A DNA stretch of 64,000 nucleotides, from assembly GCA_045401155.1 (NCBI GenBank), contig CP174360.1:233403-297402 (forward strand), given 5' to 3'. Under the pieces are notes generated by a model that saw nothing but the letters and a program-made list of their open reading frames with translations, was not told the DNA's origin and ran no database searches. This document shows, piece after piece, positions 33 to 32,208 of this stretch. The DNA is from Candidatus Minusculum obligatum. Lineage in GTDB: Bacteria > Patescibacteriota > Minisyncoccia > Phycocordibacterales > Phycocordibacteraceae. Every line of letters starts with the position of its first letter. The first letter of the stretch is position 1. A program made the translations under genes and the position numbers.

Positions 33-1247
33 GTGTCTCGAGCAGTATATGCAATGCTCGAAGAGTGTTTTGAAAATACCAACAAAACAACTTTTGTTGT
101 TTCTGGAGAAGAAGATGCGAGTGTTTCTGGGGTGCATACAAAAATTGCGTACGCAACATTTGCTCGTATGCCTACAGAGAAAGCTCATGGTGCGTCTATT
201 GCACATATGTGCACCTCTTTTGTAAAGAGCGGGTTTGAAGTGCAACTTATAACGCCAGAGCGGAAAAATGTAATTGATACAGATATATATGAATACTATG
301 GTGTGCCGAACGTGTTCTCGCACACATATCTATCAGTACGGGATCTGTTATCTTTTTGTACGTCACAACTTTGTTTTTTCTTACAAAAAATATTATTTGC
401 ACGAGCTGTAGCAAAGAAGGCTCTTGCTCCAATTGTGTATACGCGAGATCCAGAGGTTGCGTTTTTCTTGAAGAAAAAGCGTACGGTTGTATTTGAGGCA
501 CACCGCATGCCTTCTGGAGTAAAGGCATCTATTGTTGGGTGGTTGTTGCGCGGAGTTTCTCTTGTTGTTGCAAACTCAAAAGGAACTGCCCAGGCATATG
601 CCTCTCAGGGTATAGAGAATATTGTTGTGGCGCCAAATGGTTTTGATGCAGCATCTTTTGATGTGGCGCATGCAAAAAAAGATGCACGTGCTGATCTTGG
701 AATTAAGGAGAGTATAAATGTTGCAATGTATGTTGGATCGCTAGAGTTGTGGAAGGGTGTGAAGACACTTTTTGAAGCAGCAGAAGGTTTGAGGCAGCAT
801 GGTATTGAAACGGTTGTTATAGGAGGAGGTGACAAGGAAGTAGAAAAACTTAAGGTAAAGTATCGCTCAGTTACATTTCTCGGATTTAAGCCGTATAAGG
901 ATTTGGCAAAAAATCTTCAAGCCGCAGATGTGCTCGTGTTGCCAAATACCAAGAAAGACACGCAGTCATTGAAGTACACGTCTCCTATTAAGCTATTTGG
1001 CTACATGGCCTCTGGGGTTCCTGTTGTTGCTTCAGATATTGAATCTATTCGAGAAGTTCTTACAGAAGATATGGGTGTTTTGGTTGCGCCAGATAATGTA
1101 GATGCACTTATCTCGGGAATTATTGGAGTTGTAGAGAGTGAGGGAAAAGGTCAGGAGCTTGCAGCTAATGCAAAAGAAGAGAGTAAGAAGTACACGTGGG
1201 ATATGCGTGGAAAGGCTGTTACTAGTGCAATACGTAACGTTATATGA
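33..1247 (+). CDS. Glycosyltransferase family 1 (GT4-like, GT-B fold)
   Basis: The 404-aa ORF has a C-terminal half with typical GT1 features: a FLG...K..L....ADVLVLP block and the EGFG-equivalent region 'KLFGYMASGVPVVASD'. The start is uncertain: GTG at 33, an alternative GTG at 132 giving '...HTKIAYATF', and the frame stays open to the window edge. Confidence 0.8.
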   Translation: MSRAVYAMLEECFENTNKTTFVVSGEEDASVSGVHTKIAYATFARMPTEKAHGASIAHMCTSFVKSGFEVQLITPERKNVIDTDIYEYYGVPNVFSHTYLSVRDLLSFCTSQLCFFLQKILFARAVAKKALAPIVYTRDPEVAFFLKKKRTVVFEAHRMPSGVKASIVGWLLRGVSLVVANSKGTAQAYASQGIENIVVAPNGFDAASFDVAHAKKDARADLGIKESINVAMYVGSLELWKGVKTLFEAAEGLRQHGIETVVIGGGDKEVEKLKVKYRSVTFLGFKPYKDLAKNLQAADVLVLPNTKKDTQSLKYTSPIKLFGYMASGVPVVASDIESIREVLTEDMGVLVAPDNVDALISGIIGVVESEGKGQELAANAKEESKKYTWDMRGKAVTSAIRNVI

Positions 1248-2263
1248 AAATCTGTCTTTTTGGTTTTTTTGATCCCTCTTACTCACGCAACAGTATTGTT
1301 GTAAAAAGCCTTTTGGCGTGTGAGGCGGAAGTTGTTTCAGTGCAAAAAGAGAAAGTGAGTTTAGGTGGGATTTTTTCACTCCTATTTTCAATTCCAAAAG
1401 ATATAGATGTTGTGCTTGTGGGATATTCAGATAATCGTATAGGAGTATTGCTCGCAAAAATCTTTTTTAGAGGTCCTGTTATTTGGGATGCATTTTATTC
1501 ACTCTATGATACGCGAGTACATGATAGAAACCTTGTATCAAAACATAATCTAAAAGCCTGGCTATATTGGTTTTTGGATTGGATGAATATTACTCTTGCC
1601 GATGGGTATGTATTTGATACTGCAGCACACAGGGAGTATTTTGAGAAAACGTTTGGTGCAAAAAGAAATAAAGGTAAGGTTTTGTATATTGGTTCAGATA
1701 CAGAAGAAGTTAGCTGTGAGGAGCGGGACGTCATTGGTTTTTATGGAAAGTACATTCCATTGCAGGGGGTTGAAAAAATAGTGGAGGCAGCAGCGTTGCT
1801 GCCCGAGTATTCTTTTGAATTTATTGGTTCAGGGCAAACGTATAAAGCAGTGCAAGAGCGCATAAAAGAACTTGGTGTAGAGAATATTACGTGTATTGAT
1901 CGTCTTCCATACGATGAGCTTATGCAGCGTGTTTGTTCATGGAAGCTCGCACTCGGTATTTTTGGCGCATCAGAGAAAGCGTCTCGTGTAATTCCAAATA
2001 AGATTTATGATGCTGCAGCTTTAGGTAAGGCAATTATCACACTTGATACACCTGCTGTTCGGGAATTATTTGTACACGATAGAGACATTATTCTTGTAGA
2101 TGGAAGTCCGGAGTCTGTTGCAAGGGAGATTAAAGACCTCATGGAGGACGCTGAACGCAGAGTGCGTATTGGAGACTCTGCAAAGATGCTTTCAAAGAAA
2201 AAACTGGCAAAGAAAGTGCTTGGCATAGAGCTTATTTCCTTTTTGCGTAAATACGTGGGATAG
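1244..2263 (+). CDS. Glycosyltransferase, GT1-like (GT-B fold)
   Basis: 339 aa. The C-terminal region 'NKIYDAAALGKAIITLD...DIILVD' resembles the GT1 nucleotide-sugar binding domain. There is a 4-nt start/stop overlap with the upstream GT, suggesting translational coupling. Confidence 0.65.
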   Translation: MKICLFGFFDPSYSRNSIVVKSLLACEAEVVSVQKEKVSLGGIFSLLFSIPKDIDVVLVGYSDNRIGVLLAKIFFRGPVIWDAFYSLYDTRVHDRNLVSKHNLKAWLYWFLDWMNITLADGYVFDTAAHREYFEKTFGAKRNKGKVLYIGSDTEEVSCEERDVIGFYGKYIPLQGVEKIVEAAALLPEYSFEFIGSGQTYKAVQERIKELGVENITCIDRLPYDELMQRVCSWKLALGIFGASEKASRVIPNKIYDAAALGKAIITLDTPAVRELFVHDRDIILVDGSPESVAREIKDLMEDAERRVRIGDSAKMLSKKKLAKKVLGIELISFLRKYVG

Positions 2264-2279
2264 GGCACTATAACTATAT

Positions 2280-3596
2280 ATGGAGCAGAAAAGCTACTAC
2301 AATACGCGTACTCCGTACGAGAAAATATCTCGAGGTAGATACGAGTCTATCGCTCGTCTTCTTAAGAAAAAGAACGTGCGTGCGGTTCTTGATATTGGTT
2401 GTGGTGTAGGAGGTCTTGGAAAAAAGTTAAAAGAGGACGGTATTGTTTCTTCTGTATACGGTCTTGATATCTCTAAGGAGGCTGTGGGAGAGGCAAAGAG
2501 CGTACTTGATGGCGCGTGGGTATTTGATGCAGAGAGTAATTCTTTCCCCAAAGAAGTTCCGCTTGAAGATGTTGATATCATTATTATTTCAGAAGTACTA
2601 GAGCATCTTTTTGATCCAGAAGAATTTCTTAAAAATGTTCGGGCGGTATCTAGTGCACCGATTTTAATTTCAGTTCCAAACATTCTCTTCTGGAAAAATA
2701 GATTAAAGTTATTGTTTGGTTCATTTCGGTATACACAAAGCGGTCTGATGGATCGGGGTCACATTCGTTTCTTTACACCAGACACGCTCAAAGAAACGCT
2801 TATTCGTGCGGGGTATGAGACTGTTGGTACAGACCATGTCTTCCCAACACGTATCACATCACTTTTAAATAACGTCTTCCCGGGCTTGTTTGCCCGGCAG
2901 TTTGTTGTATTGGCAGATCCTATCGATGTGCTGGTATATACTGCAATATTTGGAAAGTACGACACGCTTGCACCAGCGCCATCTATTCCAGGAGTTGCTT
3001 TTGTTTGCGTAACTGATTCAGAGAAATACAAAGTTTCGGGATGGACGATGCAATATATGGAGCCACAGTATGAAGATGTGGTGCGTAATGCACGGTTTGT
3101 AAAAGTAAATCCGCACATTGTATTTCGGCACATTCCTACAAGCATCTGGATAGATGGAAATATTTCTGTTGTTGGAGATGTAAAAGAGGCCTTGGAAAAG
3201 TATCTTGCAGATGGCGTGTCTATGGCCGTGTATGACCATGGGTCAACTGTAGGAGATGCTCGCACCTCGCTTTTTGAAGAGGCAGGTGTGCTTATCGCTT
3301 CAGGAAAGAAGGATGATCCAGAGGTGATGCAGAAACAGATTGATCGATATAAGGAGGAGGGGTATGCGGATGATCAAGGGCTTATCTCAAGTATGGTTAT
3401 GTTTCGTCGGCATATGGATCCTGTGCTTCAGAAGGGTCTTTCTCGTTGGTGGGAAGAAATAGAGGGAGGCAGCCGTCGTGATCAGCTCTCATTTAATTAT
3501 GCGATGTGGAAAGAGGGCGTGCCATTTACATATATAAAGGAAGATTCTCGAAATAATGCATATTTCGTACATGTTCCACATAAGAAGCGATCATGA
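2280..3596 (+). CDS. Fusion protein: class I SAM-dependent methyltransferase domain + DUF616-like putative glycosyltransferase domain
   Basis: The N-terminus carries SAM motif I 'VLDIGCGVGGLG' and a post-I acidic 'ISEVLEHL' block. The C-terminal ~240 aa ('YTAIFGKYD...IWIDGNISV...RRDQLSFNYAMW') resembles DUF616 (TOD1/MUCI70-like) as recalled from memory. Confidence 0.6.
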   Translation: MEQKSYYNTRTPYEKISRGRYESIARLLKKKNVRAVLDIGCGVGGLGKKLKEDGIVSSVYGLDISKEAVGEAKSVLDGAWVFDAESNSFPKEVPLEDVDIIIISEVLEHLFDPEEFLKNVRAVSSAPILISVPNILFWKNRLKLLFGSFRYTQSGLMDRGHIRFFTPDTLKETLIRAGYETVGTDHVFPTRITSLLNNVFPGLFARQFVVLADPIDVLVYTAIFGKYDTLAPAPSIPGVAFVCVTDSEKYKVSGWTMQYMEPQYEDVVRNARFVKVNPHIVFRHIPTSIWIDGNISVVGDVKEALEKYLADGVSMAVYDHGSTVGDARTSLFEEAGVLIASGKKDDPEVMQKQIDRYKEEGYADDQGLISSMVMFRRHMDPVLQKGLSRWWEEIEGGSRRDQLSFNYAMWKEGVPFTYIKEDSRNNAYFVHVPHKKRS

Positions 3597-4444
3597 AAGT
3601 AAGTGTAGTTATTCCAACGTACAATAGAGTAGATCTCCTAAAGAAGGCGATTGATTCTGTCGCAGCACAAACGTATAGAGATTTTGAAATTATCGTAGTT
3701 GATGATGGAGAAGACTCTCCAGAGGAAATGCTCGCCGCATTTTCAAACCTCTCTATTACGTATCATAAGAATGAAAAGAAGTTAGGTGGTGGCGGGTCTC
3801 GCAATAAAGGAGTGTCGCTTGCAGCACATGATGTTATTGCATTTTTAGATGATGATGACTCTTGGGTTCCCGAAAAGCTGGAGAAGCAGGTGGCAGCACT
3901 AAGGGAACACAAAGAAGCTCTATTTTGTTTTTGCGCGGTACTAAATGTGTTTCCAGATAAGGAAGAGCGCACGCATGTAGTAGAAGGGCTTTCTGATGTA
4001 CATCTACTATCTCTTCGTCGATTCAAAGGTTTTCTTACAAGCGGGCTTGTTGTGTATAAGGATGTGTTTGAGCGTATTGGTGGATTTGATGCTACCTTTC
4101 CAAGTCATCAAGAAGCTGAGCTTATGATTAGACTCTCGAGAGAGGGTAAGGGTGTTGGTATAGATGAACCACTTGTTCGCATGAACTTAGCGCATGGGAG
4201 AGATCATATTGGCGGAAATATAGAGCGAAGAATTAAAGGAAGAGAAATGCTTTTAAAAAAGCATGAAGGAGTATATAAAGAACATAAGGATATATATGCG
4301 CTTCAGTGGTACCGGCTCTCCTTTTTATACAGAGATGCTAAAAAAAGCGTTGTCGCAGCTTCATGCCTGCTTCATGCCTGGAGATTTAGTCTGAACCCGT
4401 ATTACCTGATCAGGTGCATTGTAATGTTGGTTTTTAAAAGGTAG
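3593..4444 (+). CDS. Glycosyltransferase family 2
   Basis: N-terminal 'VSVVIPTYNRVDLLKKAIDSVAAQTYRDFEIIVVDDGED' is a classic GT-A/GT2 signature with a DxD-like 'DDDD' block. It overlaps the upstream stop by 4 nt. Confidence 0.8.
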   Translation: MKVSVVIPTYNRVDLLKKAIDSVAAQTYRDFEIIVVDDGEDSPEEMLAAFSNLSITYHKNEKKLGGGGSRNKGVSLAAHDVIAFLDDDDSWVPEKLEKQVAALREHKEALFCFCAVLNVFPDKEERTHVVEGLSDVHLLSLRRFKGFLTSGLVVYKDVFERIGGFDATFPSHQEAELMIRLSREGKGVGIDEPLVRMNLAHGRDHIGGNIERRIKGREMLLKKHEGVYKEHKDIYALQWYRLSFLYRDAKKSVVAASCLLHAWRFSLNPYYLIRCIVMLVFKR

Positions 4445-4448
4445 TATT

Positions 4449-5174
4449 TTGGACATGAGAAATTTTGTAAAAGAGTTTAAGAGGCGAAACCTATATTTGA
4501 AGGGTGGAAGAGAAATTTTTTATGATCTTGCTGGAGAGTACCTTCCAGAAAACGATGATGCGGTTGTTGTTGATGTGGGTAGTGGCTTTGGTGTTTTTGC
4601 AAAACACCTGGGGCTGCATGACAGGTATAAGAACCTTCACCTTCTTGATGGAAGCAAAGAGGCTTTTAGAGTTGTTCCTCTAACTACGCTCTACACAATA
4701 CCTGAAAAACTTCCTTTTAAAGATGAAAGTGTAGATTTTTTGCACGCAAGCCATATCGTTGAGCATTTGTACTATGAAGACCTGCATTTTTTCATGAAAG
4801 AAGTAAATAGAACACTTAAAAATGGAGGAGTCTTTGTGGTAAGTGCACCGTTGTTTTGGAAGAAGTTTTTTGGGAATCTAACACACATAAAGCCATATGA
4901 GCCGAGAATGTTTGAGCGTTATTTAGGTCCGGAGGGAAATGGCCCTACGGCAGGCACAACACTTCCTAAAATTGCAGACACTTTCCATACTGAACGCCTA
5001 GAGTACAGGTATACAGAGCACGGGAGTGTTAGCGAGCTTGGATCTCGTTACTTCGTTGTTGATGTTTTAATGAAAATTACCCAGAATATCTTATGGCATT
5101 TTGGATTTAGGAGGTATCAAAAGAACGGTTATACGCTCGTGCTTAGAAAATTAGAGTCTGTTGAAAAGAAATAA
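4449..5174 (+). CDS. Class I SAM-dependent methyltransferase
   Basis: Motif I 'VVVDVGSGFGVFAKHL', the 'ASHIVEHL' block and 'LKNGGVFVVSAP' match the Methyltransf_11/23-like fold. Confidence 0.7.
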   Translation: MDMRNFVKEFKRRNLYLKGGREIFYDLAGEYLPENDDAVVVDVGSGFGVFAKHLGLHDRYKNLHLLDGSKEAFRVVPLTTLYTIPEKLPFKDESVDFLHASHIVEHLYYEDLHFFMKEVNRTLKNGGVFVVSAPLFWKKFFGNLTHIKPYEPRMFERYLGPEGNGPTAGTTLPKIADTFHTERLEYRYTEHGSVSELGSRYFVVDVLMKITQNILWHFGFRRYQKNGYTLVLRKLESVEKK

Positions 5175-6422
5175 AAGGAGGGCAATTCCAATTGCTCTAG
5201 AAGAGACAAGAGCATATATTGCACCCCAAAGCCCAAAGAGTGGAAGCAGTATAAGTAGTAGTGTTATCCGAACAATAGGCATTGTAATTTGAATAACATA
5301 AAGCTCTTTTGTGCGCATGTGTGCTGTTAGAACATTTGAAAAAAACATTGAAGGTAATGCAAGAAGAGTGAGAGAGAATATCTGAGAGTACGGAACAGCG
5401 TTTAAATAAAGAGGGAAAAAGATTTTAAATATATATGGCGCTGTAACAATATATAGCCCTACAACAAAAGTAATAAAGATAAAAAATAAGAATGCCTTGC
5501 GCGGCACACTTTCTTTTAGGCGATCTAATTTCTGCGTGCTTGTTTTGGGCAGGAGTAGTGTTGAAATAATTCTAGAAGACCCTTGTATTTGAGAAGGGAT
5601 TCCTGTTGCAAAGGCATATATTGCAGTTGGTAGTGCTCCTAGGAAGTGAAAAACAAGAATAGTATCAACATTATTGGCAACACTTCCAAGTATATTCATA
5701 AGACTTAGGTGAAGTCCGTAGGCGGGAAGTTCAGGGTCTGTTTTTTTCTCGGAACTTACATTTTTTTGTACGTATACAAAAAACACGAAAGAGATCAACG
5801 CGTGAGAAAAGAAGTGGGCAAATAAAATCAAAAGCACTTCTTTTGTAACTAAGAGAGTTGCAATAATTGTTGCGGTTGCAAGTGTGTTACGTATAAGAAA
5901 TAAGATTGTTTTTGTTTTAAACTTTTTCTTTCCAACAAGAAAAGCGTCATAGTAACCACCTGCTATGGATATTATTGAAAATACTCCTCCCAAAAGAATT
6001 CCACCTGCAAGAGTTAAGTTTTGATTTAGGAAGTAGTAGGCTCCAAGTCCTAAAGCTATAGTGATTGGAATAAAGCTCCAACGAATTTGAGTTAGAAAAC
6101 CTTGTAACAGCGCTCCATCAAAACCTTTTGCTGCAGAGCGTGTGATTGCCGCAGCCATGCTAGAAAGGGAAAATGCTGTAATAATTCCAACAATTGCAAG
6201 CACAAACTTATAATTGCCATACGTTGTCGCGGGGAGAAGGTTTGCAAAAAGAACAGTAAGGAGGAAAGTTAAGAAAATTCCGCCTATTTGGCCAACACTA
6301 AGCCAAAAGCCTCCATGGGCAAGGTAGACCATGTCTGTTTTTGTATATTTTTCACTCCATCTGAGTGTTTGCACAAGCATGTTTCTCATAAATATAAGTA
6401 TAGCAGCGAAGTTTGGTACCAT
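5151..6422 (-). CDS. Polysaccharide/oligosaccharide flippase (Wzx-like, MOP superfamily) membrane protein
   Basis: 423 aa and hydrophobic throughout with about 12 predicted TM helices. Its position inside a GT locus and its length are typical of Wzx/MurJ-like flippases. Confidence 0.7.
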   Translation of the reverse strand: MVPNFAAILIFMRNMLVQTLRWSEKYTKTDMVYLAHGGFWLSVGQIGGIFLTFLLTVLFANLLPATTYGNYKFVLAIVGIITAFSLSSMAAAITRSAAKGFDGALLQGFLTQIRWSFIPITIALGLGAYYFLNQNLTLAGGILLGGVFSIISIAGGYYDAFLVGKKKFKTKTILFLIRNTLATATIIATLLVTKEVLLILFAHFFSHALISFVFFVYVQKNVSSEKKTDPELPAYGLHLSLMNILGSVANNVDTILVFHFLGALPTAIYAFATGIPSQIQGSSRIISTLLLPKTSTQKLDRLKESVPRKAFLFFIFITFVVGLYIVTAPYIFKIFFPLYLNAVPYSQIFSLTLLALPSMFFSNVLTAHMRTKELYVIQITMPIVRITLLLILLPLFGLWGAIYALVSSRAIGIALLLFLFNRL

Positions 6423-6429
6423 AGTACAT

Positions 6430-6762
6430 ATGTACCTCTGGCTTGCAATTAGTTTTATCGCTGGCGTTTTTATAGGAAGAATGTTTTTAGGTAAGAAACA
6501 TAATGTTTTTTCTCATAAAGAAGCTGTAGAGTTTGGTAAAAAAGGAAGGGAGGCTCAGCAAGAAAGGGTGCAGCGCCGAAAAGAAAGAATTTTGGCGTAT
6601 GCAATAAAGAAGGGGAGAGTTGTAAATGATGATGCAGAAGACATGTTTTGCATTAGTGACTCTACGGCGTATAAGTATTTGCGCGAGTTAACTGATGAGG
6701 GAAAGCTAGAGAAACATGGGGAAGGTAGAGATACGTACTATGTGCCCATAAAGACACAGTAA
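6430..6762 (+). CDS. Small membrane-anchored protein with C-terminal winged-helix (HTH) domain
   Basis: Starting at ATG 6430 ('MYLWLAISFIAGVFIG', one TM) avoids overlap with the convergent flippase. The C-terminal 'RILAYAIKKGRVVNDDAEDMFCISDSTAYKYLRELTDEGKLEKHGEGRDTYYV' looks like a wHTH DNA-binding domain (DeoR/MarR-like). Confidence 0.45.
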   Translation: MYLWLAISFIAGVFIGRMFLGKKHNVFSHKEAVEFGKKGREAQQERVQRRKERILAYAIKKGRVVNDDAEDMFCISDSTAYKYLRELTDEGKLEKHGEGRDTYYVPIKTQ

Positions 6763-6771
6763 TAATTTGTA

Positions 6772-8628
6772 ATGAAAAAAGCACTTACATATTTTCTTGT
6801 CGGAATTACATTTTGTATAACCATTTTGCCGCTGCTGGTGTTTGATGGTCTATTTTTTCCATTTATTACGAGCAAGGCATTTGCATTTAGGTTTCTTGTT
6901 GAGTTTGGGGTAATTGCATTGTTGCTTCTTGCAACAATGGATAAGAAATTTATTCCAAAAATTACTCCGGTAACGGTATTCTTTTTTGTATTTGTAGGAG
7001 TAATGTTAATCGCAGATCTTTTGGGTCTTAATGTTACGCGAAGTGTATGGAGTAATTTTGAGCGTATGGAGGGGTGGGTAATGTTGGCGCACTTGTTTGG
7101 GCTGTTTCTTATATTTGATCGAGTGCTTTTTGTTAATGAATTATGGAAGCGTTTTTTACAGGCATCTCTAGGAGTTTCATTTTTGGTTGGGGTTCATGGC
7201 GCAGCTCAGCTTTTAGGATATGCAGAAATTCACCAGGGAGGTGTACGTCTTGATGCAAACTTTGGAAACGCAACATATCTTGCGGTATATACACTATTTC
7301 ATATCTTCTTTGCAGCATGGCTATTCTTTTCTACAAAGGTATCGTGGTTGCGATTCTTATACGTCGGAGTTGGTGCACTGAATCTTGTACTTTTGTACTT
7401 TAGTGGGACACGTGGTGCGCTTCTTGGTCTTATTGGAGGAGTGTTTGTGTCATTGCTTGTATATGGGTTTGCGAAGAAGAGTAAAAAAATACTTTCATTT
7501 GGACTAGGGTTTGTTTTGCTATCAGTCTTAGGTTTGGGAGTATTAAGTGCATATAAAGAGCACTCAGTTATTAAGGACGATCCTGTGCTTACACGTATTG
7601 CGGACATCTCGTTTCAGGCAGGAGAGACACGTTTTCGTATTTGGGATATCGCACTACAGGGATTTTATGAGCGACCACTTTTAGGTTGGGGGCAAGGGAA
7701 TTTCAATCTAGTATTTTCTAAGTATTACAATCCAAAACTTTATGCACAGGAGCCGTGGTTTGATCGTGCACACAATGTGTTTCTTGATTGGTTGATTGCA
7801 GGAGGAGCTTTTGGACTGTTGGCATATCTTCTGTTTTTCCTCTCCCTCTTTTTCTTTGTGTGGAGAGGTTCTTTTAGTCCAACAGAGAAAGGTCTTGTTA
7901 TAGGAGCATTAAGTGCGTATGCAATAAATAATTTATTTGTATTTGATAATCTTTTGAGTTACGTACCGTTTGTGTTTATTGCCGCGTTTGTAAGTAGTAG
8001 GGTTGTCAGGACATATAGCTTGCCAAAGATTTTACTACCCATCTCTATCACTCAGTCTCTCATTATTATTATTGGACTGTGTGTGGTGTATGTAGTGAAT
8101 ATCCCAGCGCTAAATGCAAATGGCGCGCTGCTTCGTGCACTTAACGGCACATATGCGCTTGAAGAGCGTCGTACATTCTTTGTAGAGGCGCTTTCATATA
8201 ACTCGTTTGCAGATCAAGAGATTCGAGAGCAGATGGTGCAGGTTGCGCTTTTGGGTGTGCGTAGCCCAAATCTTTCAGACCAGGCAAAGTTTGCACTTAT
8301 TGCTGATGCTGCTATTGAGATAGGGAAGCAAGCGCAGATTATGGAAGAGAGTGCTCGTATTCATATATTGTATGGAATCATGCTTCGTCTTCTTGGAAGC
8401 TTTGAAGATGCAGAAGTTGTGTTAGAGCGCGCATATAATGCCGCGCCAAACAAGCAAAGTGTTATTTTTGAATATGCACTCACAAAAGATCTTTTAGGTA
8501 AGCAAGAAGAGGCTGTTGCGTTGTTTAAGAAGGCGTATGAGTTAGAGCCAGGTTATTCAAAGGCAGAAGAGCTGTACCGTGCCATACTTGAAAAATATGA
8601 AAATTCTGCTATAGTATCGCCTAAGTGA
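6772..8628 (+). CDS. O-antigen ligase/polymerase family (Wzy_C) membrane protein with C-terminal TPR repeats
   Basis: Multi-TM N-terminal region with 'FSGTRGALLGLIGG', 'RFRIWDIALQGFYERPLLGWGQGNF' and 'AHNVFLDWL', matching Wzy_C/WaaL/PglL-type signatures. The C-terminal ~200 aa is TPR-like helical repeats ('EDAEVVLERAYNAAPNK...EEAVALFKKAYELEPGYSKAEELY'). Confidence 0.75.
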   Translation: MKKALTYFLVGITFCITILPLLVFDGLFFPFITSKAFAFRFLVEFGVIALLLLATMDKKFIPKITPVTVFFFVFVGVMLIADLLGLNVTRSVWSNFERMEGWVMLAHLFGLFLIFDRVLFVNELWKRFLQASLGVSFLVGVHGAAQLLGYAEIHQGGVRLDANFGNATYLAVYTLFHIFFAAWLFFSTKVSWLRFLYVGVGALNLVLLYFSGTRGALLGLIGGVFVSLLVYGFAKKSKKILSFGLGFVLLSVLGLGVLSAYKEHSVIKDDPVLTRIADISFQAGETRFRIWDIALQGFYERPLLGWGQGNFNLVFSKYYNPKLYAQEPWFDRAHNVFLDWLIAGGAFGLLAYLLFFLSLFFFVWRGSFSPTEKGLVIGALSAYAINNLFVFDNLLSYVPFVFIAAFVSSRVVRTYSLPKILLPISITQSLIIIIGLCVVYVVNIPALNANGALLRALNGTYALEERRTFFVEALSYNSFADQEIREQMVQVALLGVRSPNLSDQAKFALIADAAIEIGKQAQIMEESARIHILYGIMLRLLGSFEDAEVVLERAYNAAPNKQSVIFEYALTKDLLGKQEEAVALFKKAYELEPGYSKAEELYRAILEKYENSAIVSPK

Positions 8629-8659
8629 GTGCTTTGAGCGCACACCGATGTTTGTAGAG

Positions 8660-8684
8660 ATCCGCCTTTCGGCGGATTTTTGCA
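8660..8684 (+). terminator. Rho-independent terminator hairpin
   Basis: Stem ATCCGCC/GGCGGAT with a TTTC loop followed by a T-run (TTTTTGCATTTTTT), 30 nt after the stop of the upstream + strand gene. Confidence 0.5.
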
Positions 8685-8951
8685 TTTTTTACAACTCCTC
8701 TATACACTATATATAGTTTGTAGGAAGAAGTGGGGGCGGCTGCACTCACGTATTAACATCGGTGGAGCTCGCACCCGTCCCCGCTTCTCTCTAGAAACAA
8801 TCTACATAAACTACGTAGTTACAATTTATCCACACAAAACATGATTCATGCGTCATGTTTTTTGTTTTGTGTTCGATAATACATGCATGGACACGCAGGT
8901 GAGTTCCTGCAACAGGGGTCGACTTTTATTTCAGTAAACTACGTAGATTCT

Positions 8952-9194
8952 ATGCCGGCAAAAAAGAAAGCTGCGCCTAAGCGAAAGACTGCTAAGAAAG
9001 CAGCTCCAAAGCGAAAGGTTGCAAAAAAGGCAGCACCTAAGAAAAAGGTGGCCAAGAAGGCTGCACCAAAGCGAAAGGCAGCACCTAAGAAAAAGGTGGC
9101 CAAGAAGGCTGCACCAAAGAAGAAAGCAGCTCCAAAGCGAAAGGTTGCAAAAAAGGCAGCTCCTAAGAAGCGAGTTGCAAAGCGACGAAAGTAG
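8952..9194 (+). CDS. Histone H1-like / AlgP-like lysine-alanine repeat DNA-binding protein
   Basis: The protein is almost entirely tandem KKAAPKRKVA / KKAAPKKKVA decapeptide repeats, like bacterial histone H1-like proteins (Hc1/AlgP/HU C-tail type). The start is taken at ATG 8952 (MPAKKK) rather than 8883, because the 5' extension is not repeat-like and contains an intergenic palindrome. Confidence 0.6.
   Translation: MPAKKKAAPKRKTAKKAAPKRKVAKKAAPKKKVAKKAAPKRKAAPKKKVAKKAAPKKKAAPKRKVAKKAAPKKRVAKRRK
8990..9170 (+). repeat. Tandem ~30-nt coding repeats (KKAAPKRKVA units)
   Basis: Reiterated aaagcagc(t/a)cc(a/t)aagcgaaaggttgcaaaaaaggcagc... units are visible directly. The out-of-frame ORF 9019-9246 is the same repeat read in another frame. 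Confidence 0.7.
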
Positions 9195-14215: not shown

Positions 14216-14992
14216 ATGAAAGAGCTTACATTAAACGGGCGCACGTATTTGAGCACGAAGCGCGCAGCAGAAATTACTGGTTATACAACAGACTATGTCG
14301 GGCAGCTTGCTCGACAGGGAAAGGTGGATGCGCAACTTGTTGGGCGCAATTGGTATATAAGTGAAGAGGCAATTAAAAAGCACAAGTTTGGAGAGGCTTC
14401 GGTAGTGATAAAAAGAGAAGAGGAAGAAGTATCAGCTCCGCAGCTTGAAGTTCTTGTAAGTGCCACTGATGATGTTCTTGAAGTGGATGAAAAAGAAGAG
14501 GTTCCAGTTGAAGAAAACGTTGCAGAAGAAAAAGTTTCATCAGAAAACTCTCTTACAGAAATGCAAAGTGCGTGGCAAGAATGGTACAAGGCTCAACGAT
14601 CAGTTCCTACAGAAGAGGAAGAAGTTTTCTTAAGCAAAAATGATATTGAGGAAGAGAAGGCTTCAGAAGAAGTTTCTGTACCGATAACTAAAATGGAGTC
14701 TCCAAAAATAACACGTATTAACAATGATGTTAGTGCACCAACAGAAGTTGTTGAAGTTAAGCATGAAGAGGAGCGTGCACCCATGCCCTCACCTGTACAG
14801 GTAAGAGATCTTCCAGCAAAGCGTTCATGGACAGGAACAGGGTTGGTCGCTGCTGCGCTCGTAGCAATTCTGTTTGTAGGTGTCATTACAGTTTCTACTA
14901 CGTACGTACTCACAAAAAATACGGATACGCCTGTTGCAGCAGCTTTTCAAAGTCTTGAGGATTACCTACTTGGAATCAAGCGAATTGAATAG
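14216..14992 (+). CDS. Membrane protein with N-terminal excisionase/MerR-type HTH domain, acidic linker and C-terminal TM helix
   Basis: The N-terminus 'TKRAAEITGYTTDYVGQLARQGKVDAQLVGRNWYISEEAIKKH' is an HTH_17/excisionase-type HTH. A long E/D-rich linker follows, then a TM segment 'GLVAAALVAILFVGVITV' near the C-terminus. The HTH is clearly paralogous to the N-terminus of the downstream giant ORF. Confidence 0.6.
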   Translation: MKELTLNGRTYLSTKRAAEITGYTTDYVGQLARQGKVDAQLVGRNWYISEEAIKKHKFGEASVVIKREEEEVSAPQLEVLVSATDDVLEVDEKEEVPVEENVAEEKVSSENSLTEMQSAWQEWYKAQRSVPTEEEEVFLSKNDIEEEKASEEVSVPITKMESPKITRINNDVSAPTEVVEVKHEEERAPMPSPVQVRDLPAKRSWTGTGLVAAALVAILFVGVITVSTTYVLTKNTDTPVAAAFQSLEDYLLGIKRIE

Positions 14993-15656: not shown

Positions 15657-18600
15657 GTGTCTGCCGATTCAGAAAAATTTATTCCAACAAAGGAAGCTGC
15701 GTCTCTAGTCGGGCGTACTTCTGATTACGTTGGTCGACTTGCTCGAGAAGGGAAAATACCTGCGAGTCGGATTGGTCGATCTTGGGTTGTGAGTAAAAGA
15801 GCACTTCTGGAATATTTTGATGTTCAAGAGTCTGTAAAAGAAATTAAAAAAGAAAAACTTTCTCAAACAAGAAAAGAAGAATACAAGGAGGTCCAGAGGC
15901 CAAAAGCTAACGTTGGAAAAAGCTTAACAATTTTTGTTCAGAAGCTGCCAGTTGAAAATCTTGTTTCTTTTGCAGTTGCGGTCCTTGTTGTGTTTGGAAG
16001 TTTTTCTCTAGTGCATGCTTCTGGTTTAGCAAAGCTTCCAAAAGTTGCTCTTGATGTGATTCATGAAAAGGTTGTCTCTTTGAATCGAGGAATTGCAAGT
16101 GCAACAAACGGTCCTCGTCCAACATATGTAGGGAACTACGTAGTTGAAAAAGAAAACTTTGAAGTAGAGGGGTTTGAGATGAACAATATTTTTGCATCAG
16201 CCCTCGAAGGGTTTGAGAGTGTTGGAGAAGGTTTTGAATATCAAGGATTTTCAAAAAAGAATGACTACGTAGTTGAAGGTGATGATGGTCTGTCTCTCGT
16301 TGCTGTTTGGAATAATTACGTTGCACTAGGAGAAGGGATCGTGGAGACCTCTCATGTTTTGTCTCAAGCATATGTAGATCTTGTGCACGCGTTAGGTAAG
16401 GGGACTCTGCAGAACGCACTTGCCGCGAGAGATCTCTCACGAGCACTACATAGAAACACATTTGTTGCATATGAGTCTGGCGTGAACACTTACGTGAGTT
16501 CTCTTCAGGTAGCTCCAGATGCGTATACGGGTGCTGTATACGCTTTCGTAGATGAGAGTTATAAGATTACTAATGCTTTCGCTAAGGCTCCACTTCAGGT
16601 TGGTAATGCGATTCTTTCTTCGTCTCAGTCTATTCCTGAAGGGAACCAAAAGATCGGTTCTGGATTGCGTATAATAATGCCGGCTTTAGGTGAGGCTATT
16701 ATTAGCAGCCATGAACGTCTTGTGTATGGTTTTGTCGAGTCTTCATACGCTGTTGTAGATGCGTATAAGGATTCAATTATGCGTGCTGGTGACCATGTTG
16801 GAGGAGCGTATGCTTTTGCTCGTTTTGATTTGCCACCTAAGGTCGGCAAGGGTCTCGCAAATGCCTTTATGGCAACTACAGATGTTGTAGACGAGAGTGT
16901 AGAGCGCGCAGGAGAATATCTAGCGCAAGCATACATTGTACCAGCCGTTACAGTTACTTTGTCTGGGATTGAGGGTGTTCAGCATGATGTAGAGGGCTTC
17001 TCTAAAAATCTTGCGTCCGGGACTATTGCTAAAAAGAGTCTTTTTGAAGATGTTGCAGAGTCTGCACAGGCAAATGTTGTGGATGGTGTTCAGAACTTCT
17101 TTGCTCGAATCTTTGGGCGCGGAGAAGATCCTGTGCTTCTTGTAAACCCAGGGCCAGCTCAGACGAATGTTGTTATTAAAGAAGATGAGCCTGCGGTAAT
17201 CACTCCTGGAAACGTTGTTCAGAACTTCTTTGCAACAACAGATGTAAGTAAGAGCTACGTAGATGCCGGTATTACTTCATTGCATGCTGCGCTTTCTGCA
17301 GAAATACAAAAGCTTACTTCATTGAACCGCAACCAGATTATTCAGAACATTCAAACTACACATGTTCTTAATCGAATTGAAGATCTTACAGATACAATTC
17401 TTCGTACACCTGAAATTATCGGAGGAACACTCGATGATGTAGACATTCGAGGAAATTCTAATTTCTCAGGAAACACAGTCTCAGGAAATGAGTTTATTGG
17501 TGGTACCGCAAGCTTTGGAACAACAACTGTTTCTGAGATTAACGTAACAAATAACATTACAGCAGGAGGAGTACTTTCTGTTGCAGGTCTTACATCAAAC
17601 GGAGTTCTAACAGGACCGTACTTTACTGCAACAAGTACCACTGCAACTTCTACATTTGCTGGAAGTATAGCGGTTGATACAGACGGGTTCGTGTATGCAA
17701 CAAGCACTCGAAATGTTGGTATTGGAGTACTCTCTCCAAGTGCGCTTCTTTCGCTTCAAAACTCTACAAGTACACAGCCAATTGCGACGTTTGCAAATGA
17801 TTCTGGTTCTGAGTTATTCCGGTTTACAAATACTGGATATTTAGGAATTGGAACAACAAGTCCATATGAAGCGCTTTCAGTAGATGGAAATGGTGTGTTT
17901 ACAGGAACACTTACAGCAGGAGCAACGACGCTTTCGGGGGCGTTGGTTGGTACAACGGCAGAATTTACTTCTGGAACTACCACAAATGCTACAAGTACTA
18001 ACTTCTTTGCAACAAATGGGCGGTTTACCAATCTGATTGGCACAAATGCCACTATTACTGCAGCTACAACCACAAACTTCTACGCATCTATTTTTGACGC
18101 CGCGACAGCTGCACTCACAAATCTTGTAGCCACAAACGCCACAAGTACTAACTTTGCAGTTAGCTCTCTTGCACAAGGTTCAGTTCCATTTATTGGAACA
18201 GGGGGACGGTTAATTGATGATAATGCCAACTTCTATTGGGATGATACAAATAACCGTCTTGGCATTGGAACAAGTTCTCCGTATGCGAAGCTTTCTGTAG
18301 TAGGACAAACAGTGTCTGAATACTTTACAGCAACAAGCACCTCGCTTGTATCTACATTTCCGCTTGCGAGTTTTACATCTGCAACATCAACACAGCTTGC
18401 AGTAAATTCTCTGACATCAGGACGCCTGCCGTATGTCACTACAGGAGGTCGGTTGATCGATGATGCAGACCTTACATTCGACGGCACAACGCTTACGGGG
18501 ACAGATTTGATCTTCACTCGAGCAACCACCACAAATGCAACAAGTACCAACTTATCTGTGTCAGGAACCTTTAATGCGGTGACAGGAGGAGCTCAAGCTG

Positions 18601-21600
18601 CTGGAATTACAGTAAATGCAGATGGGTATGTAGGTATTAATAATACGAGTCCATTATCCCCACTTGATGTGACTGTTTCTGCGGCAAAGCCAGCTGTATT
18701 CAGAGGAACAACTGAGCCACGTGTTCGATTTGTTGCAAATGGAAGCAATGTCGGACTTCTAAATGGATATGTTGGAGATTCTTTCCGTGTGTACTCTTCA
18801 AGTGGGCTGCCGCTTCACATAGGAGCAAATGAGAGCACGCAGCTCCGCTTTACCACAACAGAGATTAATGTAAGTGATGATCTTATTCCTACTGCAAATG
18901 CAACATATGATCTTGGTTCTCCATCATTTTATTGGGACGATGCATACCTAGATTCTTTGACGGTAAATAACCTTTCAGCTGCATCTACATCTATTGCAGG
19001 TACAAATAATGCTTCATTCTCAATTAACTCAGACAACGCAACATCAGATGGTGAAGATGCATCACTTGTGTTTTATCGAGGCGTGGTGGTGCCAAATGCA
19101 GTGATTACGTGGGATGCAAGCGAAGATCATTTTGATTTCAACCAGAATATATTTATTCAAAATGATAATGGAGGAATTGCAACATCAACACTTGCGATTC
19201 GTGCGGCAAGTGGGCAGACAGGAAATCTATTTACAGTGCAGGATGTAAATGGTCTTGAGCTTGCAAACTTTGGGGTAAATGGATACTTGGGACTTGGGAG
19301 CTCAAGTCCATCAGTGCGCCTTACAGTTGGTACAGGCACCCCAAGTTCAATCGCTTCAGGTAATTACTATAATAGTGCGTATGTAAGTGGGGATCTTGAA
19401 GTGGATGGAACTATTTACGGAACGGTAAGTGGGGCAGTGACACCTGCTGGATTTACAGAAGGTTCGGTGGTGTTTGCGGGATCTGGAGGGACACTAACGC
19501 AAGATAATAGTAATTTTTACTGGGATGACTCAAATAATAGACTTGGAATCGGAACCTCAAGTCCGCGTAGAGCACTTCATATTGCAGAGAACAATCCATC
19601 ATTCCTCCTTGAAGATGTTTCTGGAGCTTCTGCAGGACAAAAGGTTTTGCGATTTAACTATACAGGGGGAACGGTAGATTCAGAGAGTAATTTTGCAGTA
19701 CAGTCTGCAACTGATATTGGGGGATTTTCTGAAAATCTTTTCCAGATTTTCAGAAACGGACAGGTAAGTATTAATGGAGACGCAACCCCAGAGTTTACGC
19801 TTGAGGTTTCAGGCAATGAAGGAAGTGCTGGATATTTTGGACTGTCTTCAAATACCTCAAGCGCTGGAAACATATTTATTGTTGATGGTTCAGGAAATGT
19901 TGGAATTGGTACAACTACCCCGGGGGCACGACTTCATTCTCTAAGTACAGGTACACAGCTTAGACTTGGATACGATTTTGATACGTATGCTGATTTTCAG
20001 GTTGGGTCAGGTGGCGTAACCACATTTAGTGGCGCTGGTCTTGAGTTGGATAATACAGCTGGTAATAGAATTAAACTTTCGCAAGATGGTGCAAGCGGAT
20101 GGTCAAATGAGCTTGCACTTACAGATGGATCTCAGGAATGGTGGATTCGTACAATCGCAGGACGCTTTAGTGTTCGTGATCAAACAGGCGGATCAAATGG
20201 AGTGTTTGATATTGAGGCAGGAGCTCCTGCTGAATCACAAAGTATCCAGTCAGACGGAGATGTCATCTTTGGTGTAGGAAATGTAGGAATTGGAACCACT
20301 TCTCCATATGCAAAGCTTTCAGTAGTCGGGCAAGCAGTTGCTGAGTACTTCACTGCAACAAGCACGTCGCTTGTTTCTACGTTCCCTCAGGCAAGCTTTA
20401 CATCAGCAACATCAACAAACTTCTATACCAGCACCTTTGGTATTAATAGTGAATACATTTCAGATCTTACAGGAAATGGTCTTTCAATCTCAGGCGGGCA
20501 GCTAAACGTTGCAACGAGCTCGCTTTCTGCAACCTCTGGATTCTTTTTGCAAAATGGAAATAGTTTTGGAGAAACTGCAGTTCTTGGAACAAATGATAGT
20601 AATAGTCTGGCATTTGAGACAGGAGGGTCTACAAGAGTAACTATTGATACAAGTGGAAACGTGGGAATCGGTGATACAAGCCCTGATGCTCAACTTGATA
20701 TTGTGGATACATCAACAACAGGAGCAGGTCTTATTGTTCAGAAAGATCTTGCAGCATCACGCTACACTACGAATGTTGAATCACAGTTCTCAATTCGAGG
20801 AAATACAGATGATACGGAGCGGTTGTTAATTGGGTACGCCACTGATGAAAATTATGGATATATAGAAGCTGTAGATTTCGGGAGCACCTTTAACAGGGAT
20901 TTGGTGCTTAATAGTCAGGGTGGAAACGTAGGAATTGGAACTACAACTCCTAATGTTCCACTTGAGGTACTTCGTTCAGGTGCTGCTGGGTATACATGGA
21001 CTCCAAATGCTCGTACCGCAGCACTATTCCAAAATAGTAGCGCTTCAGGTTCTGCTATTGGAATTATTGGAAAATCAACAGGATCAAGTTTTATCTGGTT
21101 TGGAGACGAGGCTTCAGAGACAATTGGACAGATTGGATTTAATCACACAAGTAATACCTTCTCTATTGAAACAGCGGGAGGGGCTGGAGACTTGTTCATC
21201 AACTCTAGTGGAAACGTAGGTATTGGAACCACAACAATAAACGCAAGCTTGACTGCGAGTGTTGCCTCAACAGGAGATGTGCTTTCTCTTGTGCGAAATG
21301 ACAACGGAAATAGGTGGGCGCTAGATCTTGGAGGAAATAATCTTAATTTCAAGTTTAATGGTGGAAATGATATTGTCACTATTAATAATGGTGCCCCAGC
21401 TGCTTCTCTTTATGTAGGGACTACAGGTGTGGGAATCGGTACAACAAGTCCATTAAGTAAGCTACATGTTGCTGGGCAAGTTACTATTGATGGCACAAAC
21501 TATTCTCGAGTAGAGTACGCGCGCAATGGTACAGATGTATGGACTGCTGGACTGCACGAAAGTGATGATTTTGAATTTTTCCGAACAAGTGGTTCGGGGA

Positions 21601-27413: not shown

Positions 27414-27878
27414 ATGAAAAAAGGATTTACACTCATTGAATTGCTTGTGGTGGTTGCCATCATTGGCATGCTTTCATCTGTAGTGCTTTCTTCTTTGAAC
27501 ACTGCTCGTGCAAGTGCTCGTGATGCACGTCGTGCACAAGATGGGAAGCAGGTGGCTGCTGCACTCGAACTTTACTATAGTGCAAATAATGGATTTCCTG
27601 CCAATGGGGGGACCGGTTGTTCTACAAACTATTGTTTATCTCATATAAGCGCAGCACTTACGCCTACGTATATTCCAAACTTACCTACGGATCCTATTTA
27701 TGGAGACTCAGGAACGTATCCATATCGGTATTGTGTGACAGGGAATGCATTTGAGCTCCTTGTGTACGATGAAGGCCTATCGTCTTGGTGTCATATTAGA
27801 CATGGATCAAATGACTCTGGAAGTGGGTGTTGGATGACAAATGGAGTTCCAAATAGTGGAACTGTTTGGTGTGACTAA
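27414..27878 (+). CDS. Type IV pilin-like protein (prepilin-type N-terminal cleavage/methylation domain)
   Basis: 'MKKG|FTLIELLVVVAIIGMLSSVVLSSLNTARA' is a class III signal peptide with a conserved Glu at +5. It is about 150 aa with C-terminal Cys residues. Confidence 0.85.
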   Translation: MKKGFTLIELLVVVAIIGMLSSVVLSSLNTARASARDARRAQDGKQVAAALELYYSANNGFPANGGTGCSTNYCLSHISAALTPTYIPNLPTDPIYGDSGTYPYRYCVTGNAFELLVYDEGLSSWCHIRHGSNDSGSGCWMTNGVPNSGTVWCD

Positions 27879-27899
27879 GGGCATGCTACAATTTTCTTA

Positions 27900-28619: not shown

Positions 28620-29070
28620 CAAAGGGTTTACACTTATTGAATTGCTTGTGGTGGTTGCCATCATCGGCATGCTTTCTTCCGTTGTTTTAAGTTCTTTAAA
28701 TCAGGCACGAGCAAATTCTCGAGATGCTCGACGTACAGGTGATATACATTCTATACGTACTGCACTTGAGCTTTTTTATAATGCTTATAACAGGTATCCA
28801 TCATCTGCAGATGGTAATTGTGTTTATAATAACAGCTTTGCTTCAGGTGGGTGTTTACAAGTGCTTGTTTCAAACGGTTTTATTCAAGCTTTGCCAGAAG
28901 ATCCTGTCGGAACACAAACGTACTACTACGATAATTGGTGTCGAGAGATCGGTTCAAATAATCAGAATTTTCGTGTATGGGCAAATGGAGAAACAGACAA
29001 CAATGGTCTTGCTGAAAATTGGTGGTATGAGGAAACAATTGGTGAGACAACGTGTTATGACCCGAGTTAA
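28603..29070 (+). CDS. Type IV pilin-like protein (prepilin-type N-terminal domain)
   Basis: 'MVFTNNKG|FTLIELLVVVAIIGMLSSVVLSSLNQARA'. The start at ATG 28603 overlaps the rpe 3' end by 17 nt. Confidence 0.8.
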   Translation: MVFTNNKGFTLIELLVVVAIIGMLSSVVLSSLNQARANSRDARRTGDIHSIRTALELFYNAYNRYPSSADGNCVYNNSFASGGCLQVLVSNGFIQALPEDPVGTQTYYYDNWCREIGSNNQNFRVWANGETDNNGLAENWWYEETIGETTCYDPS

Positions 29071-32162: not shown

Positions 32163-32208
32163 ATGTCCGTATTGTAACAGGAGAGTGGTGTACACTTACG
32201 CATATATG

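Follow-up and report, generated by a model that had tools for sequence, protein, structure and literature searches.

The Wzy_C-TPR membrane protein encoded at 6772-8628 of a 64-kb stretch of Candidatus Minusculum obligatum DNA (here called the window) is the last gene product of a glycan-assembly locus. Our leading, though tentative, interpretation is that this enzyme joins a finished glycan to an acceptor at the cell surface, probably a protein, without polymerising it. With similar reserve, we regard the locus as what the window shows of a surface-glycan island that varies between strains and has at its boundary a conserved terminal transferase, inherited vertically.

The glycan locus

Pfam confirmed every domain that a first-pass annotation had assigned to the named genes of 33-8628, and the eighth, unnamed gene is real as well (Table 1). 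The first two genes overlap by 4 nt. The first could begin at either of two codons, GTG at 33 or ATG at 54, and its product matches no NCBIfam model at or above cutoff. In the fusion protein, an N-terminal SAM methyltransferase (aa 23-182) precedes a C-terminal TOD1/MUCI70 (DUF616) glycosyltransferase-like domain (aa 250-411). The GT2 enzyme is soluble, with neither a transmembrane nor any other hydrophobic segment, and the Wzx-like protein is polytopic, with at least nine hydrophobic blocks. The Wzx-like gene faces the cassette in convergent orientation and diverges from the transferase gene.

Table 1. Features of the glycan locus, in window coordinates
Feature	Position	Strand	Evidence
GT4-family glycosyltransferase (GT-B)	33..1247	+	Pfam Glycos_transf_1 5.9e-25, Glyco_transf_4 1.1e-10
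Second Glycos_transf_1-type glycosyltransferase (Pfam 'group 1', GT-B)	1244..2263	+	Pfam Glycos_transf_1 6.8e-14
Methyltransferase-TOD1/DUF616 fusion	2280..3596	+	Pfam Methyltransf_23 1e-16, TOD1_MUCI70 (=DUF616) 2.4e-13
GT2-family glycosyltransferase	3593..4444	+	Pfam Glycos_transf_2 1.8e-32
SAM-dependent methyltransferase	4449..5174	+	Pfam Methyltransf_11 3.1e-12
Wzx-like (MOP/Polysacc_synt) lipid-linked oligosaccharide flippase	5151..6422	-	Pfam Polysacc_synt 1.4e-13
Small conserved membrane-anchored wHTH protein	6430..6762 (ORF listed 6331-6762)	+	Weak HTH-type Pfam/NCBIfam matches; relatives' copies
WaaL-fold membrane core of Wzy_C-TPR protein (aa 1-445)	6772..8106	+	
C-terminal helical/TPR domain (aa 446-618) of Wzy_C-TPR protein	8107..8628	+	TPR_14/TPR_8/TPR_2/TPR_19/TPR_12 matches, helix pattern in model
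Intrinsic-terminator-like hairpin	8653..8684	+	Strong; 14 bp stem + T-run

The small gene ahead of the transferase probably starts at Met34 of the listed ORF, and its product has one transmembrane helix and a basic, wHTH-like cytoplasmic C-terminal domain. It is a real gene, since conserved copies (66% and 51% identical) occupy the same position in loci L001 and L002 of relatives. It is confined to the closest relatives and may encode a membrane-anchored regulator. The hairpin lies directly 3' of the Wzy_C-TPR stop codon and ends the transcription unit ahead of the genes for a basic protein and SecA.

The assembly pathway had earlier been described as complete, which overstates its content: neither an initiating phosphoglycosyltransferase (WbaP-type) nor a nucleotide-sugar synthesis gene is present among the window ORFs scanned. 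The cassette lies against the window's left edge and could extend past it.

A fixed transferase gene beside exchangeable cassettes

The Wzy_C-TPR protein is a member of a large lineage-specific family. Among more than 2170 matches, the named source organisms are all Patescibacteria except one (candidate division KSB1). The corresponding loci come from at least 593 GTDB species, and nearly all of the best 80 loci carry Patescibacteria or Parcubacteria-group labels, four being labelled merely 'bacterium'. The gene occupies the same place in 67 related loci, mostly just upstream of SecA; in 52 of 60 loci SecA follows it within four genes. The cassette upstream of the transferase gene is completely variable among the same 67 loci. 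Comparison of the window with a Wolfebacteria locus illustrates this pattern: SecA, Obg and GatB are 75% identical, the Wzy_C-TPR protein 63% and Wzx 35%, and the cassette enzymes of the window have no counterpart there. A conserved enzyme beside a variable cassette is also seen at about 40% identity.

The cassettes differ in export route. Three mutually exclusive routes were found upstream of the transferase gene: Wzx (26 of the 67 loci), Wzm with Wzt (Wzt_C; 13 loci) and a PglK-like fused ABC_membrane+ABC_tran protein (13 loci). The remaining 15 have none of these exporter types within 10 kb; this, and the absence of an initiating transferase from the window, we count as observations against our preferred interpretation. 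The divergence of the Wzy_C-TPR protein follows that of SecA (r = 0.81 over 861 pairs) and is unaffected by export class (40.9% versus 40.2% identity). Even near relatives that differ in export route, with SecA 77-83% identical, retain Wzy_C-TPR proteins that are 69-74% identical. By the measure of comparative genomics, the enzyme is thus indifferent to glycan structure and export route.

These data bear directly on whether the protein is a genuine Wzy-type polymerase that joins flipped repeat units, with a separate enzyme attaching the polymer. Pfam Wzy_C takes in some polymerases too, and the window cassette has a Wzx and no other polymerase candidate. In loci L001, L002, L005 and L008, too, the cassette ORFs without Pfam annotation that were checked include no second polytopic Wzy-like protein. 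However, Wzm/Wzt or PglK-like ABC exporters lie directly beside orthologues in 26 of the 67 loci, and Wzm/Wzt routes, being ABC-dependent, operate without a Wzy. A Wzy protein usually varies in step with the repeat unit, whereas the divergence of the Wzy_C-TPR protein is independent of cassette and route and tracks SecA whatever the exporter, which argues for a glycan-agnostic terminal transferase. We therefore consider a polymerase very unlikely, in agreement with the first-pass annotation, which had proposed that the protein does not polymerise an O-antigen. Because its orthologues serve Wzx-, Wzm/Wzt- and PglK-like-exported glycans, the enzyme is more plausibly a ligase or an oligosaccharyltransferase.

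Fold and active site of the Wzy_C-TPR protein

The 618-residue protein matches Wzy_C at aa 202-353 with 73.2 bits against a gathering cutoff of 31.7 (Pfam PF04932), and TPR models at aa ~510-600. Its membrane core, which comprises 13 predicted transmembrane helices, is polytopic and WaaL-like in fold, and a large external loop joins TM9 to TM10. The conserved external loops (aa 84-101, 148-166 and 261-335) are the best-conserved parts of the protein (0.71-0.78). Such class-wide conservation suits a single invariant acceptor, for instance a lipid or a cell-wall component, no less than it suits an assortment of proteins, and we note it as a point against a protein acceptor. The residues R214, R287 and H334 are invariant across 57 homologues and align with identical residues of WaaL 7tpg and of E. 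coli WaaL. Conserved Arg/Arg/His residues have been described in E. coli WaaL (R215/R288/H338) and in PglL (R224/R298/H349) (PMC3643930). In two sequence comparisons, both of them weak tests, the protein aligned with E. coli WaaL across 245 columns, the triads matching position for position, and showed no detectable similarity to E. coli K-12 Wzy (WbbH), a single divergent template (hhalign, only 20 columns, E 0.21). No NCBIfam O-OTase or ligase model was matched; the highest-ranking NCBIfam model, that of the uncharacterised IctB family, fell short of its cutoff.

From the extra helix TM13 ahead of it and the positive-inside pattern of the loops, we predict that the TPR domain sits on the outer side of the membrane, next to the catalytic loops. 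A 13th helix and some 170-300 residues of TPR on the outer face are predicted for almost all members of the family, which number more than 2000. The domain described here is shorter than usual, most members of the family having ~720-750 aa; within it, E483, R529 and P559 are invariant. TPR domains occur in polysaccharide-export scaffolds too, so the presence of one is no proof of a protein substrate, and this also counts against our preferred interpretation.

WaaL (7TPG/7TPJ of Cupriavidus metallidurans; E. coli RfaL) is the closest solved structure and the closest sequence, at ~15% identity, and like the Wzy_C-TPR enzyme it is indifferent to glycan structure and export pathway. Unlike WaaL, the Wzy_C-TPR protein has TM13, the external TPR domain and the extra invariant external motifs SNFERMEGW and QGGVRLDA.FGNATY. 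Lipid A-core is not an expected acceptor, since Patescibacteria are considered to lack LPS and the annotated ORFs of the window include no LPS genes.

The acceptor and the proposed pathway

A serious rival to a protein acceptor is a lipid ligase of the TacL/WaaL type, which would transfer the exported glycan from undecaprenyl-pyrophosphate (Und-PP) to a glycolipid of the membrane or to some other invariant lipid anchor. We think this possible, if on the unlikely side; the same applies to its proposed product, a lipoglycan or lipoteichoic-acid-like molecule, with the TPR domain acting as a scaffold or chain-handling module. The relationship to WaaL, the indifference to glycan and export route that WaaL enzymes share, and the highly conserved external loops, suggestive of one conserved acceptor, are all consistent with a lipid ligase, as are the missing PglL_A motif and the lack of an acceptor protein gene next door. 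Patescibacteria, however, are regarded as having reduced lipid biosynthesis, and neither the window nor the neighbouring genes yielded a recognisable glycolipid-anchor synthase. A further precedent is TacL (RafX) of Streptococcus pneumoniae, a Wzy_C protein of a monoderm bacterium that ligates Und-PP-linked chains to a glycolipid, the final acceptor outside the membrane (PMC5727136). TacL, at 397 aa (PMC5727136), and WaaL, at ~400-420 aa, nevertheless have no extra transmembrane helix or TPR domain, features that are near-universal in the Wzy_C-TPR family. Between protein and lipid, we tentatively favour a protein acceptor by analogy with the S-layer enzymes WsfB and WsaB and from the TPR domain itself.

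WsfB combines Wzy_C with a C-terminal TPR; WsaB is a Wzy_C protein encoded adjacent to the TPR protein WsaA. Both are predicted O-OTases of Gram-positive S-layer glycosylation (slg) clusters, which also contain Wzm/Wzt and a terminating O-methyltransferase (PMC2943079). The likeness of the Wzy_C-TPR enzyme to them is drawn from these descriptions. The slg clusters of Paenibacillus alvei and Geobacillus stearothermophilus resemble the locus in their monoderm-type envelope setting, their glycosyltransferases, O-methyltransferase domain and exporter (Wzm/Wzt in slg), and in having as final transferase a Wzy_C membrane protein that either contains a TPR module or has one encoded next to it. Their central genes are strain-specific as well (PMC2943079). 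In contrast to the slg clusters, the locus has no S-layer or other acceptor gene adjacent to it and no WbaP-type initiating transferase in the window, and in Patescibacteria the enzyme is encoded by a core gene that stays beside SecA, with the cassette being swapped around it.

Pilins had been put forward as acceptors through an analogy with PglL/PilO. The window does contain five pilin-like genes (N_methyl) and a giant surface protein of 3430 aa (Thr 10.6%, Ser 9.8%), as the first-pass annotation had reported. Several of the pilins have Ser/Gly-rich loops, and one (28582-29070) has a C-terminal Ser. PglL/TfpO (PilO) of Gram-negative bacteria shares with the Wzy_C-TPR protein a Wzy_C core with the Arg/Arg/His triad and a relaxed glycan specificity, and moves single Und-PP-linked units onto Ser/Thr residues of proteins that include pilins (PMC3643930); PglL is also described with a C-terminal TPR motif (PMC2943079). 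The motif PglL_A (Pfam PF15864), which separates PglL from WaaL, has no match in the protein even at E<=10, so that the proposed HMM comparison returned Wzy_C above cutoff and no PglL_A. When a motif scan that recovers all five window pilins was applied to 84 other loci, none had a pilin-like gene within 10 kb on either side of the orthologue, whereas PglL genes adjoin pilins in 21 of 31 cases (PMC3643930). The nearest window pilin is ~19 kb away amid housekeeping (pentose-phosphate) genes, and the giant protein gene is linked to the locus solely through a run of housekeeping genes, the terminator closing the unit. Neither a pilin nor another obvious acceptor gene adjoins the transferase gene, and lineage and architecture differ from those of PglL/TfpO. 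A pilin-specific O-oligosaccharyltransferase of this kind, with the window's type IV pilin-like proteins as acceptors, is therefore improbable. Of the earlier proposal that a methylated oligosaccharide is transferred to surface proteins, en bloc transfer to a surface acceptor remains the best reading, while the link to pilins is unsupported.

We propose that a pathway ending in a protein acceptor would proceed as follows. An initiating phosphoglycosyltransferase encoded elsewhere would begin the chain, and the soluble GT4, GT1 and GT2 enzymes, the DUF616-type domain and the two methyltransferases would build a short methylated oligosaccharide on Und-PP at the cytoplasmic face. The Wzx-like protein would move this lipid-linked glycan to the outer face, where the WaaL-fold enzyme, through its external R214/R287/H334 site and without reading the glycan, would transfer it en bloc to an acceptor outside the membrane. 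The likeliest acceptor class would be a secreted surface protein, O-glycosylated as by WsfB and WsaB, with the external TPR domain holding the protein substrate or a partner.

A possible, if doubtful, extension of this pathway is a general protein O-glycosylation system throughout the Paceibacteria/Parcubacteria type, in which the core WaaL-fold oligosaccharyltransferase would capture, through its external TPR domain, surface proteins exported by Sec (for instance giant adhesins, pilins or an S-layer) and would receive its glycan from the rapidly exchanged adjacent cassette. If so, the locus would represent a serotype island on ultra-small epibionts, shaping host attachment and the evasion of phages.

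Gene content and boundaries of the window locus

The domains that the first-pass annotation had assigned to the glycan locus were all recovered by Pfam where it had placed them (see the table). Its description of a complete pathway did not hold: neither an initiating phosphoglycosyltransferase nor nucleotide-sugar genes were found in the window by Pfam annotation and motif scan, and the pathway is thus incomplete as seen. The cassette, the variable glycan-building genes upstream of the Wzy_C-TPR gene, reaches the left edge of the window and may extend past it. An exact protein match bears the organism name 'Patescibacteria group bacterium UBA2103'. A scan for Bac_transf and MraY/WecA signatures gave matches in three related loci (L040, L046, and L082) only and none in the window, a weak negative. 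The Bac_transf-type motif RPGLSGWAQI lies at about 1098 (minus strand) in L040, 1730 (minus) in L046, and 5318 (plus) in L082, in each case upstream of the Wzy_C-TPR gene: about 4.7 kb away in L082 and closer in L040 and L046, at distances between a few hundred bp and about 1.2 kb. This suggests that the initiating enzyme sometimes belongs to the island, though it is absent from the window.

A strong hairpin resembling an intrinsic terminator ends the transcription unit ahead of SecA, and a promoter-like site also lies between the Wzy_C-TPR gene and SecA. An operon with SecA was therefore rejected, and the conserved SecA neighbourhood represents synteny rather than co-transcription here. The same interval encodes a very basic protein of 103 aa with its own promoter-like site, Lys/Ala/Pro repeats (AKKAAPKRKV), and a weak HC2 histone-H1-like match; the Wolfebacteria relative has a 103-aa ORF at the equivalent position. 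Directly upstream of the Wzy_C-TPR gene is a small membrane-anchored protein that is kept in the closest relatives only: L001 and L002 have it in the equivalent place, 66% and 51% identical. This protein may regulate the neighbouring glycan genes.

Features of the window, with coordinates, strand and basis of assignment
Feature	Coordinates	Strand	Basis
GT4 glycosyltransferase	33-1247	+	Pfam
GT1 glycosyltransferase	1244-2263	+	Pfam
Methyltransf_23 fused to TOD1/MUCI70 (DUF616)	2280-3596	+	Pfam
GT2 glycosyltransferase	3593-4444	+	Pfam
Methyltransf_11 methyltransferase	4449-5174	+	Pfam
Polysacc_synt, Wzx-like, polytopic	5151-6422	-	Pfam and hydrophobic segments
Small one-TM protein with wHTH-like tail	ORF listed 6331-6762, start probably 6430	+	
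Wzy_C (73 bits), then TPR repeats	6772-8628	+	Pfam
Terminator-like hairpin	8653-8684		
Basic 103-aa protein	8883-9194	+	
258-aa HTH_17-like protein	14216-14992	+	
Giant 3430-aa surface protein	15657-25949	+	
Five pilin-like genes	27414-35534, 59608-60823		
410-aa membrane-type GT2, then 220-aa protein	41463-43359	-	
Region with CARDB-domain protein (-)	48399-54073		
Sortase	49220-49948		
Large ORF	49957-51183		No Pfam match
Large ORF, overlapping the preceding	50906-54073		No Pfam match

The Wzy_C-TPR protein and its family

The family of the Wzy_C-TPR protein comprises more than 2170 matches, and those with a named source are all from Patescibacteria except one (candidate division KSB1). Relatives occur in at least 593 species-level loci; among the best 80 of these nearly all are labelled Patescibacteria or Parcubacteria-group, four bearing the generic label 'bacterium' only. 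Most members are 720-750 aa long and have a longer TPR region than the window protein. In an alignment of 57 members the invariant residues fall in three loops: SNFERMEGW (aa 94-101), QGGVRLD..FGN (aa 155-166), and the Wzy_C loop (R214, R287, P302-G305-G307, and E327..D331-R332-H334). R214, R287, and H334 pair with identical residues in the WaaL structure 7TPG and in E. coli WaaL, and correspond to the R/R/H triad common to WaaL and PglL (PMC3643930).

The predicted model has 13 long helices ahead of the TPR region. The N-terminus is Lys-rich, the loops assigned to the cytoplasm are all short and basic, and the conserved loops are all predicted to be outside. The thirteenth helix, which WaaL lacks, would put the TPR domain on the outer face, beside the catalytic loops. 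The external loops are the best-conserved part of the protein (mean column identity 0.71-0.78), the TPR region is moderately conserved (about 0.48-0.50), and the cytoplasmic loop at 410-423 is the least conserved (0.22).

The HMM check of Wzy_C against PglL recovered Wzy_C at 73 bits, whereas Pfam PglL_A did not match even at E<=10. None of the curated NCBIfam ligase or O-OTase models was matched; the nearest NCBIfam model, the uncharacterised IctB family (58.6 bits), is far below its cutoff and functionally uninformative. A fold comparison against the PDB matched no PglL, TfpO, or Wzy structure, so that ligase and O-OTase are not separable by fold. Aligned by hhalign with one WaaL and one Wzy sequence of E. 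coli, the family profile scored weakly, and these scores count as supporting evidence only.

Inheritance, export routes, and probable terminal transfer

The comparison of neighbourhoods took in 80 GTDB loci and relatives whose identity was 74%, 63%, and about 40%. The Wzy_C-TPR gene holds a fixed position, with SecA no more than four genes downstream in 52 of 60 loci. A gene of about 340 aa, annotated MurB in two loci (L007 and L008), often lies between them, and Obg, GatB, an HTH_17-TM protein, and a giant surface protein commonly come next. The upstream cassette is wholly different between genomes, and includes genes for NeuB/CMP-sugar, GDP-mannose dehydratase, Rml, DegT, carbamoyltransferase, asparagine-synthase-like, and 2OG-oxygenase functions as well as many methyltransferases. 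Between the window and the Wolfebacteria locus, SecA, Obg, and GatB are 75% identical and the Wzy_C-TPR protein 63%, Wzx is just 35% identical, and the cassette enzymes have no counterpart.

The export route varies as well. Among the 67 non-redundant loci in which 5 kb or more lies upstream of the enzyme gene, 26 have Wzx there, 13 have Wzm and Wzt with a Wzt_C domain, 13 have an ABC_membrane+ABC_tran fusion of PglK/MsbA type, and 15 have no recognised exporter; the three classes never occur together in one locus. Over 861 pairs from 42 loci, the more SecA differs between two loci, the more the Wzy_C-TPR protein differs as well (r = 0.81), and export class makes no difference (40.9% versus 40.2% mean identity); near relatives with differing exporters, whose SecA proteins are 77-83% identical, still have Wzy_C-TPR proteins 69-74% identical.

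This vertical inheritance beside any glycan or export route is the behaviour of a WaaL or an O-oligosaccharyltransferase, and the Wzy_C-TPR protein is probably a terminal en bloc transferase rather than a polymerase, as the first-pass annotation had proposed. Glycans exported by Wzm/Wzt are finished in the cytoplasm and do not need Wzy, yet orthologues lie beside Wzm/Wzt; a polymerase, moreover, should diverge in step with the repeat unit that it links. We therefore regard a polymerase as highly improbable. No second Wzy-like protein was found in the Wzx-type cassettes: apart from the Wzx-like protein, nothing in the cassette of the window is polytopic (its enzymes have at most one hydrophobic segment), and the Pfam-unannotated cassette ORFs of 420-490 aa checked in four loci (L001, L002, L005, and L008) have at most two each. 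In the window, four glycosyltransferase domains and two methyltransferases would build the donor, a short methylated oligosaccharide, on a chain started by an enzyme encoded elsewhere. The Wzx-like protein would flip the lipid-linked glycan, and the Wzy_C-TPR enzyme would recognise its undecaprenyl-pyrophosphate end and hand the glycan to an acceptor.

The acceptor and the cell surface

We propose tentatively, at somewhat under an even chance for the full statement, that this acceptor is a protein. The external TPR domain is fused to the Wzy_C core throughout the family, and WaaL has none. WsfB, a predicted Gram-positive S-layer O-OTase, likewise carries a TPR motif at the C-terminus of a Wzy_C protein, and the gene next to that for WsaB encodes a TPR protein (PMC2943079). 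Their slg clusters encode Wzm/Wzt, glycosyltransferases, and a chain-terminating O-methyltransferase, with transfer thought to be co-secretional (PMC2943079), and resemble the related loci here in placing exporter, glycosyltransferases, and methyltransferase beside a Wzy_C protein. Neutral or contrary to a protein acceptor are the absence of an acceptor gene adjoining the Wzy_C-TPR gene, the lack of PglL_A and of an NCBIfam O-OTase model, and the terminator before SecA. Ligation to a lipid anchor is a less probable alternative: the strongly conserved external loops would also fit one invariant non-protein acceptor, and TacL (397 aa) is a Wzy_C enzyme serving a glycolipid in a monoderm bacterium, but it has no TPR domain (PMC5727136), whereas the fusion is family-wide here.

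The five pilin-like genes and the giant Thr/Ser-rich protein reported by the first-pass annotation are real, but the pilin-specific form of its proposal is improbable. PglL genes adjoin pilins in 21 of 31 cases (PMC3643930), whereas a motif scan of 84 other loci, able to pick up each of the five window pilins, detected no pilin-like gene closer than 10 kb to the gene for the enzyme; the window pilins lie at least about 19 kb away, amid pentose-phosphate and other housekeeping genes.

These pilin-like proteins have nearly identical N-termini (KGFTLIELLVVVAIIGMLSSVVLSSLN) and unrelated C-terminal halves, and their genes are scattered singly or in one pair among pentose-phosphate, glycolysis, and RNA-processing genes, with no pilus operon. 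The giant and the 258-aa protein have in common an HTH_17-like domain at the N-terminus (38% identical across about 65 aa). A TM helix comes straight after this domain in the giant, and an acidic linker and then a C-terminal TM helix in the other. Of 49 Paceibacteria loci, 24 also have such a pair downstream of GatB. The giant's huge Gly/Thr/Ser-rich exterior contains Peptidase_S74 and Bact_surface_Ig-like domains, an odd companion for a cytoplasmic DNA-binding-type domain. Elsewhere, the CARDB-sortase region (GC locally raised, 0.51 at 50-52 kb) may encode a surface protein or the substrate of a sortase, possibly with a frameshift. The 410-aa GT2 (Glyco_tranf_2_3/Glyco_trans_2_3, with a weak chitin-synthase-like match), with a 220-aa protein of unknown family after it, may represent another glycan system, of the synthase type and without connection to the locus described here.

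Patescibacteria live attached to hosts, and their surface chemistry is almost unknown. Full-text literature searches found no paper joining an O-antigen-ligase-family protein to Patescibacteria or CPR, bar one unrelated mention. Pathway-agnostic WaaL-like transfer is established biology; with precedents for both mechanism (WaaL pathway independence) and architecture (Wzy_C plus TPR in WsfB), the surprise is moderate. The novelty lies in a pattern that spans the lineage: a core transferase gene is the anchor of a hypervariable glycan island, in which three export routes are interchangeable. This pattern predicts strain-level glycan 'serotypes'. If the enzyme is promiscuous for glycans, glycoengineering would gain a monoderm-type O-OTase or ligase. 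The Wzy_C-TPR gene is the single gene without which the acceptor should lose its glycan, and the locus offers a directly testable way into the surface glycobiology of Patescibacteria.
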